Below are positions 35,823-43,673 of a DNA stretch of 64,000 nucleotides, one piece after another. The position numbers were made by a program, and so were the translations under genes. How positions within the stretch are numbered: the stretch's first letter is position 1; each line of letters opens with the position of its first letter. The stretch is taken from NCBI GenBank assembly GCA_041659045.1, contig JBAZZB010000002.1, positions 159,855 to 223,854 of the forward strand, written 5' to 3'. The notes beneath the pieces were generated by a model that was not told where the DNA came from, did no database searches, and worked only from the letters and a program-made list of their open reading frames with translations. This stretch comes from Patescibacteria group bacterium (lineage in GTDB: Bacteria > Patescibacteriota > Patescibacteriia > SG8-24 > DYFX01).

Positions 35823-35948
<126 letters not shown>

Positions 35949-36127
35949 AACGTTATCACTATGATATCGTATCGCCTTGATTTGTCCCGACACGTGTCGG
36001 GAGGACAACAAAGAATACAGAATGATGACGTTTCCGACTCCGAACGCTTGCGCGCTCGGACGGATTTTTGGGTAGAAAGTACTAGTCCTTCTTACGAACT
36101 TGCGTTCGCTCGAAGCACTCGTGCTTC

Positions 36128-39228
<3,101 letters not shown>

Positions 39229-39663
39229 AGCACGATGTGCTCCAGCAGTTTCACTTACATTCTCGCTTTCAATTGCAATTCAATTCAGTACTTGTATGTA
39301 CTGTACCCATTTCTAATCTATCTTGACGTCATTTCGTCTGTATTCAGTTGTCAAGGTTCCGTCCGTCTGTCGTTGGCCCCGCCTTTCGGTCAGGGTTTGC
39401 GTCCGCTTCTACACGGACTCCGACTTACGAACCGGGATGGGAACTGGACCTCGTAGTGTCTGCAGTAGAATAGCAGTCCCGTAGGTGACCAGGAGTTCCC
39501 GTCTCGATTCACAAGTGCTTTGAGGATGAAGTAAGGACCAAAAAAACCGCCTTCCAAGCGGTTCCAGCGGCTCGACTTCGGAAGTCGGGCATGGGCTAGC
39601 TCGGTTTACGCTACTACGACTCAGTTGTGAGCGCGTTACGCAAAGTGGCAGGTTTAAGTTGTC

Positions 39664-39698
39664 CACAGTATAGATGAGTCCAAAATCCCTGTCAAGGG
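39664..39698 (-). promoter_or_regulatory. rRNA promoter P2 (TTGACA-17-TATACT)
   Basis: Perfect consensus hexamers on the minus strand, ~430 nt upstream of the 23S 5' end. Confidence 0.5.
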
Positions 39699-39744
39699 CG
39701 GGCTCTGGAACCGATTTCTACTGCGAAGGACGAGGTAACAGGCG

Positions 39745-39775
39745 GCACTTTAGTGAAGTGTGGAGGGCCTGTCAA
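39745..39775 (-). promoter_or_regulatory. rRNA promoter P1 (TTGACA-17-TAAAGT)
   Basis: A second consensus-like promoter ~80 nt upstream of P2. Confidence 0.35.
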
Positions 39776-39868
39776 GTGAGCTAATATTAGCCATGAATGA
39801 GCACTTACGATGGAAGTATTTTTTGACTTCTGCTAGGCTTTCGTCAGTTCTGTCTACGAGGAGGCACT

Positions 39869-40078
39869 ATGCACGTTCGTGAAGATGCGAGTGCAGAGGA
39901 GATCCGTGATCGGCAAGAAACATGGGAACGTAAAAAACGGGGCACATTGCTTGAGCTACTCCCCGCACGTTTCCTTCTGACAGGTGTCGTGTTTGTCGCG
40001 ACGCTCGTCGAAAAGCGGCGACCCTGTGCTGCGTTGAAGGAGGCGTGGAGTTTCTGGCGGCTGGAGGTGTTCAAATGA
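39869..40078 (+). CDS. Small hypothetical protein (69 aa)
   Basis: Strong RBS GAGGAGG 6 nt upstream of the ATG. Confidence 0.45.
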   Translation: MHVREDASAEEIRDRQETWERKKRGTLLELLPARFLLTGVVFVATLVEKRRPCAALKEAWSFWRLEVFK

Positions 40079-40284
40079 TAGAGAACGAGACACAGCGAAT
40101 CGATCCGCGCGCCATCCTTATAGGTATAGCCGGCGGCTACCTCGGCCTCGTGCTCCTAGCCTTCTGGGTGGACGGCAAGCTCTATAAGCGTCGGCTGCGC
40201 AAGAAGCGAGAGCGTTCGGAGTTCACGCCCAAGGATCGAGCGTGGTTTAGAAAGGATGATACGGATGCGCCCAAGGATCACTGA
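40075..40284 (+). CDS. Small membrane protein (69 aa)
   Basis: GGAGG RBS, TM helix ILIGIAGGYLGLVLLAFWV, basic C-terminus. Confidence 0.45.
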   Translation: MIENETQRIDPRAILIGIAGGYLGLVLLAFWVDGKLYKRRLRKKRERSEFTPKDRAWFRKDDTDAPKDH

Positions 40285-40657
40285 AGGACGTCGGATCGCC
40301 GAGATCGCGGCAGGCGCGGTCGGCGCACGAAATCACAACCCAATCGCGTTCGTCGCCTGGCTCTTCCGTCATGCCAAGATCGAGCTGGAAGAGGATCTCG
40401 TCGCCATCTGGAACGCCGGAGATTCAGTGGTCGGCTCAGATCTGTGGCCGGCGGACGTCGTGTTCTCCACGGGCAAGCCAGCACGACTCTTGCCGACGAA
40501 GCGCTACGCCGGGCACCTTGGCGTGTTCGTCGGAGGCGAGGAGCGCGACATCGTGCACGTGCATCCCGACACCGGGTGCGTCACGAAAGTTCCCATCAAT
40601 GACTTCATGGAAGAAGGCTCCTTCCGAGGCACGCGGCGCTTCATCGCCAGCTCTTGA
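40256..40657 (+). CDS. NlpC/P60-like protein lacking the catalytic Cys (putative pseudo-enzyme)
   Basis: Aligns with the downstream NlpC/P60 (ADVVFSTGKP / GDVVFCSG; GHLGVFVGGEERDIVHV / GHVGIYLGNRRVIHA; FRGTRRFI / FRGARRYI). The position of the catalytic Cys (DCSSLVKWLF) reads NPIAFVAWLF. Confidence 0.5.
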   Translation: MIRMRPRITEGRRIAEIAAGAVGARNHNPIAFVAWLFRHAKIELEEDLVAIWNAGDSVVGSDLWPADVVFSTGKPARLLPTKRYAGHLGVFVGGEERDIVHVHPDTGCVTKVPINDFMEEGSFRGTRRFIASS

Positions 40658-40732
40658 ACAGCTGGCATTTTTTGTTGACAAGCAAGCCGTTTCTGCACAG
40701 GATACGTGCGGACTGATGAAGGAGTAGACGAC

Positions 40733-41350
40733 ATGCTACATCGCGCCGTCGGTGGTCGTATCGCTGTCGATGTCCCAGAACTCGCGTTGCCGTTTCCGGA
40801 GAACGTGGTGGTCGAAAAACTCTTAGCGCTCGGATTCGAGCGCCTCGAAGTCGATCTCATCGAGCTGGCGAGACTGTGCATCGAACATTCAACGTATCGC
40901 CGCGGCGCTAGGCCACAAGAAGCTCCCGAGACGGTCGATTGCTCGAGTCTCGTGAAATGGCTGTTCGGCGAATACGGCGTCTGGTTGCCAAGGCGCACGA
41001 TTCAACAGCGCGAGCTCGGCCACGAAGTCAGCGAGTGCTTCGCGGCCGGAGATGTTGTCTTTTGCTCGGGCCGACAGAACTGGTTTTACGAACACGAGCA
41101 CCCGGCTTCCGGCACGGGGCATGTCGGAATCTATCTCGGGAACCGACGAGTCATTCATGCCGCGAGCACGAAACGCGGCGTGGTCGAGGATTCTCTCGAA
41201 GACTTCCTTGGAACCGAACCCGGCGCCTTCCGCGGCGCGCGACGCTACATCAGACCAGAGACGCGCATCTTCAAGATTCCGAAGCACATCGACGTCGAAA
41301 CGTCGGACGATCTTCGGTGGATCATTCTCTCGCGTTGTGCCAGCTCCTGA
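40733..41350 (+). CDS. NlpC/P60-family peptidoglycan endopeptidase
   Basis: The Cys-His-His triad context DCSSLVKWLF...GHVGIYLG...VIHA is present. GAAGGAG RBS. Confidence 0.75.
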   Translation: MLHRAVGGRIAVDVPELALPFPENVVVEKLLALGFERLEVDLIELARLCIEHSTYRRGARPQEAPETVDCSSLVKWLFGEYGVWLPRRTIQQRELGHEVSECFAAGDVVFCSGRQNWFYEHEHPASGTGHVGIYLGNRRVIHAASTKRGVVEDSLEDFLGTEPGAFRGARRYIRPETRIFKIPKHIDVETSDDLRWIILSRCASS

Positions 41351-41424
41351 CGGGCTGGCGTTTTTTTATTGACGCGATTTCTCTGCATGGGCATCATGCC
41401 CGCAGACCTTCAAGGAGCACAGAC

Positions 41425-42015
41425 ATGAGTGATGGGTTAAGCGAGGGGCATCGTTGGGCGGAGGAACGCGAAGACCTCCAGAGGAAGCGTGACGCGTTCT
41501 TTCACATGATCATGCGAACCGCTCTCGAGAACCGTCAGGTCGGTGACCTGAAACCGGACTTTGAGACGTTCGATGCGATTCGCTACACGGACCACATCGC
41601 GCGCGGACGGCTGGGGAAGACCGCGCACAGACGCTGGGCATCCTTTCGAGTAACGCTCATGACCGCCATGAGAAAGGGCGACGAGCGATGCTGGGCCCAA
41701 ATCCTCACGCTGGCGTTGCAGTACGCCTCACCATCCGTCACGGAGGAGCTGAGGCAGTTCTCAGAGGCGTTCGCACTTCACCAGATCGCGCTCTACGCAC
41801 CCAACGGGTCGGGGCAGGGCGGGACGTGGTACGGAAATGTCGAAGCTGTCCTTGGTGCGATCGCTGCTGGCGGCAAGGCGACTGTCGTGGAGATCGAAGA
41901 CAGGGAGCGTGCCATTGTAAGCATCACCCTCGGCAGCGAGAAGGAAAACGTGGACCCAGGACGTTCCACGCTCCGTTTTCTCGCCGCACACGACAAGCGA
42001 CTCAAGAAGACCTGA
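41425..42015 (+). CDS. Hypothetical protein (196 aa)
   Basis: AAGGAG RBS; terminator and TTGACG -35 upstream; no domain recognised. Confidence 0.5.
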   Translation: MSDGLSEGHRWAEEREDLQRKRDAFFHMIMRTALENRQVGDLKPDFETFDAIRYTDHIARGRLGKTAHRRWASFRVTLMTAMRKGDERCWAQILTLALQYASPSVTEELRQFSEAFALHQIALYAPNGSGQGGTWYGNVEAVLGAIAAGGKATVVEIEDRERAIVSITLGSEKENVDPGRSTLRFLAAHDKRLKKT

Positions 42016-42077
42016 CGTTCAGCTCGTCCCATGCGACGGGCTTTTTCTTTTCCGCAAAGACGCGCTAGGCTGGAGGC

Positions 42078-42548
42078 ATGTTCAAAATCACCATTGCCGC
42101 TGTCGGGTCGCTGAAAGAAACGTTCTGGAAGGACGCGATCGCTGAGTATCAAAAACGCCTCTCCCCCTTCGCCAAAGTTTCCGTTGTGGAAGTGGCGGAT
42201 GTTGCTTTCAAATCCGCGAATGAGGCATCGGCCGTGATGCGCGCGGAGGCCGAACTTTTGAAGAAAAAAATCGCGGATGGAGCCTTTGCTGTTGCTTTGA
42301 TAAAGGAAGGGAAAAACCTCACGACCGAGAAATTCGCTGAAACACTCGATCGCGAAGGCCAGGGTGGCCGCGAAATCATCTTCCTTATAGGAGGGCCGCT
42401 TGGGCTCGATCCAGAACTGGGCGCGAGCTGCCAGCTGAAGCTTTCGCTTTCTTCTCTCACGTTTACGCATGGCGAAGCGCGGGCGATTCTTTTTGAACAG
42501 CTGTATCGAGCCATGACTGTGCTCGCGGGAAAGACGTACCACTATTAA
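42078..42548 (+). CDS. rlmH: 23S rRNA (pseudouridine1915-N3)-methyltransferase RlmH
   Basis: SPOUT family: FLIGGPLGL and TFTHGEARAILFEQLYRA. Confidence 0.85.
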   Translation: MFKITIAAVGSLKETFWKDAIAEYQKRLSPFAKVSVVEVADVAFKSANEASAVMRAEAELLKKKIADGAFAVALIKEGKNLTTEKFAETLDREGQGGREIIFLIGGPLGLDPELGASCQLKLSLSSLTFTHGEARAILFEQLYRAMTVLAGKTYHY

Positions 42549-43028: not shown

Positions 43029-43673
43029 ATGCCCGAAAAGAAGAAGCGTCCCAACTTGAAAGCGCGCGCGCTGATGGCGACGGCTATCCACGAAAGCGGG
43101 CACGTTATCGCGATCTGGAACGAACCGGCACTACCCGCACCTACGAGCGTATCGATCATTCCAAAGGGCGGCACGGTTGGCAGAGTGAAGTTCCGACTGA
43201 AGAAGCAGTGGTGGATGACCGCGACGGTGTCCTCCGTCCGCTCCTTGATTCGCACGTACCTTGCGAGTCGCGCGGCCGAGCGCCTGCTGACCAGCTCACA
43301 CACCGTCGGATTCTACGGAGACCTCGAAGTGGTCACCCAGCTCGCGTTCATGGTCGTGTGCATTGAAGGCATGGACCAAGACTTCGGTCTTCTCTTTGTC
43401 CCCGGTTCGCTTCTGAGTGAAGCCACACGCAAGCGCGCCGACGCCGCTATCCGCAAGGTGATTGCGGAGTGCGAAGCGCAAGCTGCTCTCGACATGAAGA
43501 AACACGAGAAGCAACTGCGCAAACTTGTGCCCGTGCTTCTCAAGAAAAAGAAGCTGAAGAAGAAACAGCTGAAGAAGCTCCTTGGCGCTCGTCCGGAATG
43601 GACGGGTAACACCCTGATCAAAGGCGTCCTGCGCGCCAAGATCAGCCCACCGCGTGCTCGCAAGAAGAAGTAA
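43029..43673 (+). CDS. Stand-alone FtsH-like (peptidase M41) zinc-metalloprotease domain protein with poly-Lys C-terminal tail
   Basis: AIHESGHVIA (HExxH), SIIPKGGTVGRV and AAERL align with the FtsH protease domain. There are no AAA or TM regions. The C-terminus is KKKKLKKKQLKK...RARKKK. Confidence 0.6.
   Translation: MPEKKKRPNLKARALMATAIHESGHVIAIWNEPALPAPTSVSIIPKGGTVGRVKFRLKKQWWMTATVSSVRSLIRTYLASRAAERLLTSSHTVGFYGDLEVVTQLAFMVVCIEGMDQDFGLLFVPGSLLSEATRKRADAAIRKVIAECEAQAALDMKKHEKQLRKLVPVLLKKKKLKKKQLKKLLGARPEWTGNTLIKGVLRAKISPPRARKKK

Follow-up and report, generated by a model that had tools for sequence, protein, structure and literature searches.

Does an NlpC/P60 peptidase form a functional pair with the Cys-less homologue encoded directly upstream of it, or do the two proteins serve separate ends? 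This question is raised by a locus in a 64,000-nt stretch of DNA (the window) from a Patescibacteria group bacterium (GCA_041659045.1, contig JBAZZB010000002.1, positions 159,855 to 223,854 of the forward strand). Both genes, here called ORF1 (Cys-less) and ORF2 (catalytic type), are open on the plus strand of the window. An earlier note had read them as an active cell-wall hydrolase joined to a pseudo-enzyme.

ORF2 is a catalytic-type NlpC/P60 protein

ORF2 (40733..41350, plus strand) encodes a predicted 205-aa NlpC/P60 peptidase that passes the Pfam NLPC_P60 model (PF00877; E 8.8e-16, 58.2 bits, cut-off 23). The complete Cys-His-His set that the earlier note had seen is indeed present, as Cys70 (TGC, 40940-42), His130 (CAT, 41120-22) and His142 (CAT, 41156-58) are invariant in 53 family members. 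In the model of ORF2, helix 70-80 begins at C70, which puts the Cys at a helix N-terminus as is characteristic of NlpC/P60 proteins, and the fold is of the papain-like alpha+beta type. By sequence, the closest solved relative is E. coli Spr/MepS, with DCSS opposite DCSG and HVGIYLGNRRVIHA opposite HVGIYIGNNQFVHA in the alignment. MepS is the best sequence and structure match for both ORF1 and ORF2, and it has in common with ORF2 a Cys-His-His triad as well as DCS and LPR motifs. However, MepS is an exported lipoprotein, whereas ORF2 lacks an export signal and is extended at both ends, by an N-terminal module of ~60 aa that is particular to its family and by a C-terminal helix (ETSDDLRWI).

Neither a signal peptide nor a membrane helix was found in ORF2 (KD19 maximum 1.20), and an N-terminal hydrophobic stretch is missing across 53 homologues. 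Leaderless cytoplasmic NlpC/P60 recycling peptidases have been documented (PMC2954226; PMC9928106); examples of this YkfC/DPP VI type include B. subtilis YkfC, Chlamydia trachomatis YkfC and a Simkania NlpC/P60 protein without SH3b. In YkfC, Asp237 and Arg255 hold the hydrogen-bond network of the active site, while Ser239 and Ser257 bind the D-Glu carboxylate (PMC2954226). ORF2 resembles these enzymes in having no signal peptide, an intact triad and the equivalents of Asp237, Ser239 and Arg255 (D69, S71 and R87), and its host genome is reduced. It differs from YkfC/DPP VI in lacking both the N-terminal SH3b domains, which cap the S2 site, and neighbouring genes for an L-Ala-D/L-Glu epimerase or a peptide transporter: a Pfam search found no SH3 domain, and the surroundings of ORF2 consist of ORF1, P200 and rlmH, with no epimerase or transporter gene adjoining. 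Judging from its sequence, ORF2 is probably an active gamma-D-glutamyl-diamino-acid peptidase that is separately transcribed. Because there is no export signal, and by analogy with the leaderless YkfC-type enzymes, it most likely processes peptidoglycan-derived peptides in the cytoplasm. About 190 ORF2-family proteins were found. This leaderless family of ~203 aa maintains about 50% identity across many Parcubacteria lineages, which suggests a housekeeping role, possibly peptidoglycan-peptide recycling in organisms unable to make many amino acids.

ORF1 belongs to a conserved Cys-less family

ORF1 (40265..40657, plus strand) encodes a 130-aa Cys-less NlpC/P60-fold protein with the C-terminus FRGTRRFIASS. 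The gene had been placed from 40256, but the ATG at 40265 is the likelier start, with AAAGGA 8 nt upstream and a position common to all orthologues. The Pfam alignment that the earlier note had proposed as a check favours ORF2 only, as ORF1 remains sub-threshold against PF00877 alone (E 0.009, 16.4 bits versus a cut-off of 23); several other small-family members have a precomputed PF00877 match. The relationship to ORF2 can be seen by BLASTP (30% identity over 106 aa, E 2e-9), by the ORF2-family HMM against ORF1 (E 1e-10), by the ORF1-family HMM against ORF2 (E 4.9e-24) and by hhalign (probability 99.7%, E 1.3e-26), and the sequence blocks that had been quoted for the two proteins align as claimed. 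An AF2 model of ORF1, made from an input alignment that contained ORF2-family sequences, reached a pLDDT of 91.5, and Foldseek matched it to MepS with a TM of 0.74 and a probability of 1.00. Judged by these alignments and this model, ORF1 is a true homologue of ORF2, with a common predicted fold.

What sets ORF1 apart is its active site. MepS has a nucleophile, whereas ORF1 has Pro26 (CCA, 40340-42) in that column, at the start of helix 26-35 in the model, with N25 at the conserved Asp and E43, part of an acidic E42-E43-D44 stretch, at the LPR Arg; His84 (40514-16) and His98 (40556-58) are retained. A compensating Cys was looked for, and none is conserved anywhere in ORF1 among five close orthologues. 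Neither a signal peptide nor a membrane helix was found in ORF1 either: its KD19 maximum is 0.73, a hydrophobic N-terminus is lacking and the ORF is preceded by an in-frame stop. The leaderless, cytoplasmic reading of ORF1 and ORF2 is drawn from the missing signal peptide and membrane helix, and for the same reason the earlier picture of a cell-wall hydrolase, if an autolysin that leaves the cell is meant, is conjectural.

The ORF1 family comprises about 32 small, leaderless members (99-160 aa) with intact reading frames, and is apparently confined to Patescibacteria. Their nucleophile column reads P in 13, A in 12, S in 5, D in 1 and C in 1, the lone Cys being that of P0178; full-length members have C in 11/11. 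With P, A, S or D in 31/32 small members, the earlier description of ORF1 as a paralogue without the catalytic Cys stands. The D69 column is changed in 29/32, and the LPRR motif has become LxDD, with D or E in the R87 column in 28/32 and in the R88 column in 31/32. The H130 column is kept in 29/32 and the H142 column in 31/32, the departures including P0129 and P0172, both without His1, and P0133, in which the whole triad is gone. Such near-universal retention of both His would be unexpected for a purely inert site. The small family also has conserved motifs of its own, GSDL, DLxAL and FRGTRRxIA, and in a 13-member alignment Ser58, which lies in the new GSDL motif, does not vary. With dN/dS values of 0.19-0.30, ORF1 is under purifying selection. 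The label of pseudo-enzyme is thus a fair one, since the protein is conserved and selected while its nucleophile is missing.

The family is also an old one. ORF1 has 24% identity to its neighbour ORF2 and 23-29% to distant ORF2-family members of other Patescibacteria, and because it is equidistant from them, the split between ORF1 and ORF2 must be old, rather than a local duplication kept as a pair. The Cys-less family occupies the same locus in the outgroups L015, L017 and L018 (93% 23S identity), and therefore predates the ingroup. A recent tandem duplication can be ruled out on both counts. The ORF1 family would be an ancient offshoot of the catalytic family of ~203 aa, having shed the N-terminal module and the C-terminal helix. 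Its active site would have been remodelled from Cys to Pro/Ala/Ser, with the preceding Asp becoming Ser or Asn, the following Ser becoming Ile or Thr, and the LPR arginine and its neighbour becoming acidic.

A pattern scan from the ORF1 alignment matched CP129476.1 as the sole species-representative genome, and gave no match in JGI metagenome contigs. No relatives of the ORF1 or ORF2 families were found in 2.9 million viral contigs, and the PHROG matches of both proteins are NlpC/P60-containing tail-protein families only. No description of a Cys-less Patescibacteria NlpC/P60 family was found in the searchable literature.

ORF1 and ORF2 are probably labile neighbours

In the lineages examined, the Cys-less family always lies in a variable island between the 23S rRNA and rlmH. 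In the window, the left border is the 23S rRNA (36129..39223, minus strand; Rfam 2423 bits), an arrangement also seen in L001, L013 and L015. The right border is rlmH, a SPOUT methyltransferase gene (42078..42548, plus strand; Pfam E 2.9e-45). Several related contigs are short, but rlmH is seen at all related loci that are long enough; L020 stops short of it. Co-occurrence was counted at the level of the locus, in 10 lineages with a Cys-less gene and readable surroundings.

The functional pair proposed earlier, in which ORF1 would serve as a regulator, inhibitor or scaffold of the active hydrolase next to it, has some points in its favour. In the window and in L004 the two genes adjoin each other and share a strand, their common fold makes heterodimers conceivable, and ORF1 is under selection. 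The co-occurrence that this would predict in related genomes fails, however. ORF2 adjoins the Cys-less gene in only 2/10 lineages, the window and L004, and is missing from the locus in the other eight of the 10. Conversely, the three other ORF2 loci sampled (L009, L011 and L013) have no Cys-less neighbour. In the clade without ORF2 at the locus, selection on ORF1 is unchanged (dN/dS 0.19-0.20). For the complete genome CP129476.1, a 1.17-Mb contig, no close ORF2 orthologue was found among the best 120 matches. The genes are also separated by a terminator-like hairpin with a T run, followed by a conserved TTGAC that could serve as a separate -35 element, and the partner with which ORF1 does travel is a small membrane protein upstream. 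A regulatory role towards ORF2 is therefore unlikely.

A direct repeat of ~35 nt brackets ORF2. Each copy takes in the three final codons (ASS) and the stop of the gene before it, a terminator hairpin, a T run and a TTGAC motif: copy 1 (40646..40680, plus strand) lies at the end of ORF1, and copy 2 (41339..41374, plus strand) at the end of ORF2, where the motif reads TTGAC(G) and is the predicted -35 for the next gene. The element is also found 3' of the ORF1 homologue in L001, L004, L007, L008 and L014. In L001, L007 and L008 the 3' end of ORF1 runs through a single copy of the repeat into the leader of P200, so that the sister genomes show an exact repeat-to-repeat junction without ORF2. In L013, ORF2 ends differently, in AARST and another hairpin, so the 3' end common to ORF1 and ORF2 is particular to the window and L004. 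Because the repeat brackets ORF2 and the sisters show the junction without it, the adjacency in the window can be read as a labile arrangement rather than a functional pair. An exact scan of JGI metagenome contigs for the terminator repeat gave no match. A terminator and TTGAC element had been proposed for each gene, and both kinds of signal are present, with TTGAC following each T run and unchanged in seven orthologous junctions. They are of unequal strength, however: the first hairpin and T run (40646-40673) is statistically weak (-12 kcal/mol, z -1.1), the second (41337-41367) is stronger (-20.4 kcal/mol, z -3.4), and of the two TTGAC motifs the promoter scan accepts only the second. An antisense ORF of 164 aa (40504-40998) crosses the intergenic terminator and is partly missing where ORF2 is missing; it was taken as a by-product of high G+C.

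Taken together, we consider it probable, if well short of settled, that the ORF1 family is a conserved NlpC/P60 offshoot that is no longer a cysteine peptidase, and that it is not the dedicated partner of ORF2.

A small membrane protein is the usual companion of ORF1

Upstream of ORF1 lie two small genes. TM1 (39869..40078, plus strand) encodes a 69-aa one-helix protein (KD19 maximum 1.77), and its stop overlaps the start of TM2 in an ATGA (40075-40078). TM2 (40075..40284, plus strand) encodes a 69-aa single-pass membrane protein (KD19 maximum 2.29) whose one helix follows a short N-terminus and leads into a polybasic tail (KRRLRKKRER) at the C-terminus; the final 20 nt of TM2 overlap the start of ORF1. 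Two small membrane proteins ahead of the pair had been reported earlier, and each does have one hydrophobic helix and is conserved elsewhere, but TM2 likely starts at ATG 40075 rather than at GTG 40045. Neither protein has a Pfam, NCBIfam, PHROG or PADLOC match. TM1 homologues occur in L013 (69 aa) and L018 (57 aa), in each case overlapping the next gene; TM1 is not present in L001 and L004.

A small one-pass membrane protein of the TM2 kind lies directly 5' of the Cys-less gene in 9/10 lineages, usually overlapping it. TM2 homologues hold this position in L001, L004, L008, L014, L017, L018 and L020, while L007 has a shortened 58-aa ORF there that was not aligned to TM2. In L013, the TM2 homologue precedes ORF2 itself, apparently overlapping. 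At readable junctions TM2 and the Cys-less gene overlap by either 20-23 nt or 4 nt, apart from L017, where 8 nt separate them. A frameshift fusion of TM2 and ORF1 can be ruled out, as the overlap varies by lineage. Such an overlap indicates co-expression, not contact. ORF1 would be made from a translationally coupled TM1-TM2-ORF1 unit.

On the other side of the Cys-less gene, P200 (41425..42015, plus strand in the window) encodes a 196-aa protein (MSDGLSEG...) with no family assigned. It lies 3' of the Cys-less gene in 7/10 lineages and diverges fast (38-65% identity among close relatives). P200 has no Pfam, NCBIfam, PHROG or PADLOC match, and PADLOC found no defence-system match at the locus.

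What ORF1 may do

If ORF1 is a non-peptidase offshoot, it would most likely be a cytoplasmic binding or scaffolding module acting together with TM2, whose polybasic tail would face the cytoplasm. The ligand of ORF1 would then differ from that of the canonical gamma-D-Glu stem-peptide site. A broader proposal is that TM2 and the leaderless NlpC/P60-fold protein that follows it (mostly Cys-less, catalytic in L013) make up an undescribed membrane-associated module of Patescibacteria. Here a papain-like fold, with His-His kept and LPRR inverted to acidic, would have been re-purposed either for a new ligand or chemistry at the inner membrane face, or for the holin-like export of a wall-binding protein serving an episymbiotic lifestyle. 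We regard this proposal as improbable.

Two more specific alternatives appear less probable still. In one of these, ORF1 is still an enzyme, using its His-His pair with water or another residue for thiol-independent chemistry. In its favour, few columns are as well conserved as those of His84 and His98, the GSDL Ser58 does not vary in the 13-member alignment, and the nucleophile column does hold Cys in P0178 and Ser in five members. However, that column varies freely (P, A, S, D, C), unlike a catalytic residue, P0133 has lost the whole triad and P0129 and P0172 have lost His1, and the Asp/Arg network of S1 is gone; we consider the idea very unlikely.

In the other, TM1 and TM2 act as holins that let the leaderless NlpC/P60 proteins pass, ORF2 cutting the peptidoglycan of the cell itself or of a host and ORF1 binding the wall as RipD does. 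Phages combine holins and endolysins in cassettes, and holin-dependent secretion of wall hydrolases is known. The layout at this locus is similar, with small one-helix proteins, a charged C-terminal tail and an overlapping leaderless gene of a peptidoglycan-hydrolase fold, and in L013 the TM2 homologue stands before ORF2 itself. That a non-catalytic NlpC/P60 domain can bind peptidoglycan has a precedent in RipD (PMC12067865). Yet TM1 and TM2 match no holin family in Pfam, PHROG or NCBIfam, neither NlpC/P60 family has relatives among the viral contigs, and the locus sits in a syntenic part of the chromosome rather than in a prophage. The protein downstream of TM2 is usually Cys-less, and the loss of the D-Glu-recognising residues from ORF1 argues against canonical stem-peptide binding. 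Holin-like export is thus given little chance. Finally, a functionless decaying duplicate, which the sub-threshold Pfam score, truncated ends and lost nucleophile might suggest, is effectively refuted by the frames intact in about 32 clusters, the dN/dS of 0.19-0.30, the family's own motifs and a position kept across lineages of 93% 23S identity.

Comparison with known systems and significance

A known protein of similar kind is RipD (Rv1566c), a Mycobacterium tuberculosis NlpC/P60 protein without catalytic function (Both et al. 2014, Biochem J 457:33; PMC12067865) that is secreted, binds peptidoglycan and ends in C-terminal pentapeptide repeats (PMC12067865). Its triad is Ala-Ser-Glu instead of Cys-His-Glu, with two of three residues changed and the Glu kept (PMC12067865). 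Like RipD, ORF1 is a stand-alone NlpC/P60 fold that has been conserved despite losing its nucleophile, and the RipD structure 4jxb and the ORF1 model compare with a TM of 0.63. Unlike RipD, ORF1 has no signal peptide, keeps both His, replaces LPRR with acidic residues and comes with a small membrane protein to which it is coupled. ORF1 gave no match to the NCBIfam NlpC_inact_RipD model, and ORF2 scored 20.7 bits against a cut-off of 215. RipD and ORF1 are of independent origins. The degenerate LytM factors, such as EnvC and NlpD, are periplasmic and activate amidases, much as ORF1 would act on ORF2 in the proposed pair, and their enzyme partners are well established. ORF1 shares with them the concept of a hydrolase-fold pseudo-enzyme in envelope biology; the fold differs, and whereas the LytM factors have set enzyme partners, co-occurrence of ORF1 and ORF2 fails at the locus.

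That hydrolase folds can turn into binding modules is a principle already established by RipD, and what is gained here is annotation at the level of a family, with TM2 as a partner open to testing, rather than a new principle. The repeat-bracketed ORF2 cassette offers a clean small case of how a variable island beside an rRNA operon changes its gene content. For the Patescibacteria, whose genomes are tiny and whose cell-envelope biology is poorly understood, the Cys-less offshoot would be an NlpC/P60 fold kept by selection for a non-peptidase job that is tied to a small membrane protein.

Gene organization

In this metagenome-assembled genome of the Patescibacteria (CPR), five plus-strand genes lie between the 23S rRNA gene (36129-39223, minus strand) and rlmH (42078-42548). 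These are the small membrane proteins TM1 (39869-40078) and TM2 (40075-40284), ORF1 (40265-40657; identical to NCBI protein WC866_04415), ORF2 (40733-41350) and the 196-aa P200 (41425-42015). TM2 starts in an ATGA shared with the TM1 stop and overlaps ORF1 by 20 nt, while AAAGGA lies 8 nt 5' of the ORF1 ATG; because of these overlaps and this AAAGGA, TM1, TM2 and ORF1 look translationally coupled. The earlier note began ORF1 at 40256, which should be corrected to the ATG at 40265, the start used in all orthologues. ORF2 can be read as a separate unit behind a terminator. A 164-aa antisense ORF (40504-40998, minus strand) across this ORF1-ORF2 intergenic terminator is mirrored in L004, a related locus. 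Most likely it is no gene and results from high G+C together with sense-strand conservation.

The 23S-5S rRNA unit (35830-39223 and 39667-39775, minus strand) occurs without any 16S gene in the 64-kb window. Just ahead of 23S are two strong sigma-70-like promoters (11/12 and 10/12 matches), and 23S-5S transcription therefore appears separate from that of 16S. The 23S gene measures 3095 nt against a 2925-position model, implying insertions. The only match of a 214-aa ORF at 43029-43673 (plus strand) is to the Peptidase_M41 (FtsH protease) domain, without the AAA ATPase part, and this short gene is also kept in loci L001 and L014.

An NlpC/P60 protein and its Cys-less homologue

Pfam PF00877 matches the 205-aa ORF2 above threshold (E 8.8e-16). 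Among solved structures, Spr/MepS come closest to it in sequence, and the Spr triad motifs align with DCSS and HVGIYLGNRRVIHA of ORF2. With C70, H130 and H142 invariant among 53 homologues, ORF2 has the full Cys-His-His set previously read in it and is a canonical NlpC/P60 protein (dN/dS 0.12-0.17). No signal peptide or membrane helix was found in either ORF2 or ORF1. A leaderless protein of a reduced genome, ORF2 probably resembles cytoplasmic recycling peptidases such as YkfC of B. subtilis and Chlamydia, although it lacks the SH3b domains of YkfC-type enzymes. It is probably an active gamma-D-Glu-diamino-acid peptidase, with this substrate putative.

The 130-aa ORF1 alone scores a sub-threshold 16 bits against Pfam. 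Despite this, its homology to ORF2 is secure, as indicated by BLASTP (E 2e-9), reciprocal family HMMs (E 1e-10 and 4.9e-24) and hhalign (probability 99.7%). An AF2 model of ORF1 (pLDDT 91.5), whose input alignment included ORF2-family sequences, has the NlpC/P60 fold, with TM 0.74 to MepS. In the models, the helix that starts with Cys70 in ORF2 starts with Pro26 in ORF1, and the strands bearing His130 and His142 bear His84 and His98. No Cys is conserved anywhere in ORF1 orthologues that might complete the triad instead. The earlier description of an NlpC/P60 endopeptidase beside a paralogue without the catalytic Cys is thus upheld; family HMMs find no further NlpC/P60-like reading frame in the 64-kb window.

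A family of small proteins with an altered active site

A word-indexed search returned only four close ORF1 orthologues (73-77% identity), but exhaustive profile and profile-seeded searches bring the ORF1 family to ~32 clusters, whose proteins are small (99-160 aa). They have neither the N-terminal module (~60 aa) nor the C-terminal helix (ETSDDLRWI) seen in the ORF2 family; FRGTRRxIA plus two residues forms their end, and DLxAL and GSDL are motifs particular to them. All 11 full-length proteins compared have Cys in the nucleophile column; in the small family (n=32) the column is Pro in 13, Ala in 12, Ser in 5, and Asp and Cys in 1 each. The preceding Asp is altered in 29/32 members, the following Ser is Ile or Thr in most, and LPRR has turned acidic (R87 to D/E in 28/32, R88 to D/E in 31/32). 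In YkfC the hydrogen bonds of the active site are arranged around Asp237 and Arg255, and Ser239 is the residue that holds the carboxylate of D-Glu (PMC2954226). Because the equivalents of these residues are altered, the small family has lost the canonical S1 site besides the thiol. The first triad His is retained in 29/32 and the second in 31/32, the few losses falling in P0129, P0133 and P0172.

The dN/dS of ORF1 (0.19-0.30) indicates purifying selection (rlmH, 0.03-0.11). By these measures ORF1 is conserved and functional; most probably it is no cysteine peptidase, and its earlier description as a pseudo-enzyme holds. Between the window and L001, dS is lower in ORF1 (0.63) than in rlmH (0.97) or P200 (1.7), a difference that recombination, constraint on codons or a signal overlapping the gene could explain. 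The closely similar small-family proteins P0177 and P0178, on short metagenome contigs, differ at the nucleophile column, with RDSGA (Ser) in P0177 and RDCGA (Cys) in P0178; either a still-active branch or a freely toggling position may be represented. P0127 (1183 aa, 15-kb ENA contig), from a lineage unrelated to the window, looks secreted and has some nine NlpC/P60 repeats in tandem. DCSS is present in only one of them, and the Cys position of the others holds G, I, S or A, so that one active domain and many pseudo-domains are predicted in one chain.

Neighbours across lineages

The surroundings of the Cys-less gene can be read in ten lineages, several on short contigs. The order TM2-ORF1-ORF2-P200-rlmH is found in the window and L004/L005. 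L001/2/3/6 (complete genome CP129476.1), L007 and L008 have TM2-ORF1-P200-rlmH, as does L014, whose ORF1 is 51% identical. L015/L016 have only 23S-Cys-less-rlmH, L017 and L020 have TM2-Cys-less-325-aa protein, and L018/L019 have TM1-TM2-Cys-less-P200, three more genes and rlmH. ORF2 thus adjoins the Cys-less gene in 2/10 lineages, and TM2 lies directly upstream in 9/10. Conversely, L013 carries TM1-TM2-ORF2-rlmH with neither the Cys-less gene nor P200, and the more distant Patescibacteria L009 and L011 have ORF2-family genes at other sites with no Cys-less neighbour. The best 120 matches to ORF2 include no close orthologue from the 1.17-Mb contig CP129476.1; absence of ORF2 is shown at locus level, and a divergent copy could lie elsewhere in the genome.

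Outgroups L015, L017 and L018 (also outgroups by RlmH identity) have 93% 23S identity, compared with 97-98% within the ingroup; the Cys-less family is present in them and so predates the ingroup. Identity of ORF1 to the neighbouring ORF2 is 24%, and to ORF2-family proteins of Uhrbacteria and others 23-29%, which argues against a recent local duplication behind their adjacency.

The earlier note took the two genes for a functional pair, which this co-occurrence and the old split do not bear out. That ORF1 regulates ORF2 is the foremost of the rival explanations but is unlikely: the genes do adjoin in the window, yet such adjacency is rare, and ORF1 dN/dS is still about 0.2 in the clade without ORF2 at the locus. 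From gene order, the conserved association of ORF1 is with TM2 rather than ORF2.

P200 (MSDGLSEG...) lies 3' of the Cys-less gene in 7/10 lineages, evolves fast (38-65% identity among close relatives) and matches no family of Pfam, NCBIfam, PHROGs or PADLOC. An unrelated family of 313-325-aa proteins occurs in place of it, or besides it, in L017, L018 and L020. In L011 (3430-3930), a run of near-identical ~155-nt repeats, recognisable from translated segments that recur in the ORF list, lies by a tRNA gene upstream of the Uhrbacteria ORF2 homologue.

A repeat element in a mosaic island

A ~35-nt element (GCCAGCTCyTGAnnnGCTGGC, a T run, then TTGAC) lies 3' of both ORF1 (40646-40680) and ORF2 (41339-41374). 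It takes in the final three codons (Ala-Ser-Ser) with their stop, a terminator hairpin and a TTGAC resembling a -35 element. It is also found 3' of ORF1 homologues in L001, L004, L007, L008 and L014. At ORF1-only loci the ORF1 3' end runs through a single copy into the P200 leader, the trace expected of ORF2 cassette deletion or insertion by recombination between two copies. L013 has another ORF2 terminus (AARST, with a hairpin of its own), so in the window and L004 the 3' end of ORF2 has been taken over from that of ORF1 or homogenised with it.

The 23S-rlmH stretch (39224-42077) is variable, with gene content differing among genomes of 97-98% 23S identity (compared in the window, L001, L004, L013, L014, L015, L017 and L018). 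RlmH of L014 is 97% identical to that of the window, but its ORF1 only 51%, and its P200 belongs with that of L004 (78%, as against 40% to the window). The island is a mosaic, and these differences point to recombination inside it.

Possible roles of ORF1

Non-catalytic NlpC/P60 domains are already established, and a literature search found no work linking NlpC/P60 to Patescibacteria. In M. tuberculosis RipD, which is secreted and binds peptidoglycan, Ala-Ser-Glu replaces the triad (PMC12067865). ORF1 resembles it only broadly, in retaining the fold without the nucleophile. Because ORF1 does not match RipD's own NCBI model, has no signal peptide and keeps both His, it is placed outside the RipD family.

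The kept His pair could instead support a new catalytic chemistry, which is less probable than regulation of ORF2. Next in weight, and comparably doubtful, is export of both leaderless proteins by a holin-like TM1 and TM2, with ORF1 acting RipD-like in the wall. That ORF1, a gene under purifying selection, is a decaying duplicate is scarcely credible.

In ORF1 the NlpC/P60 fold is conserved and its cysteine-peptidase site dismantled, and the gene looks coupled to those of one or two small membrane proteins. By the positive-inside rule, the polybasic tail of TM2 (KRRLRKKRER) would be cytoplasmic, and ORF1 probably serves together with TM2 as a cytoplasmic binding or scaffolding module. The acidic, inverted LxDD patch and the kept His pair suggest that its ligand would be a new one, other than the gamma-D-Glu stem peptide.
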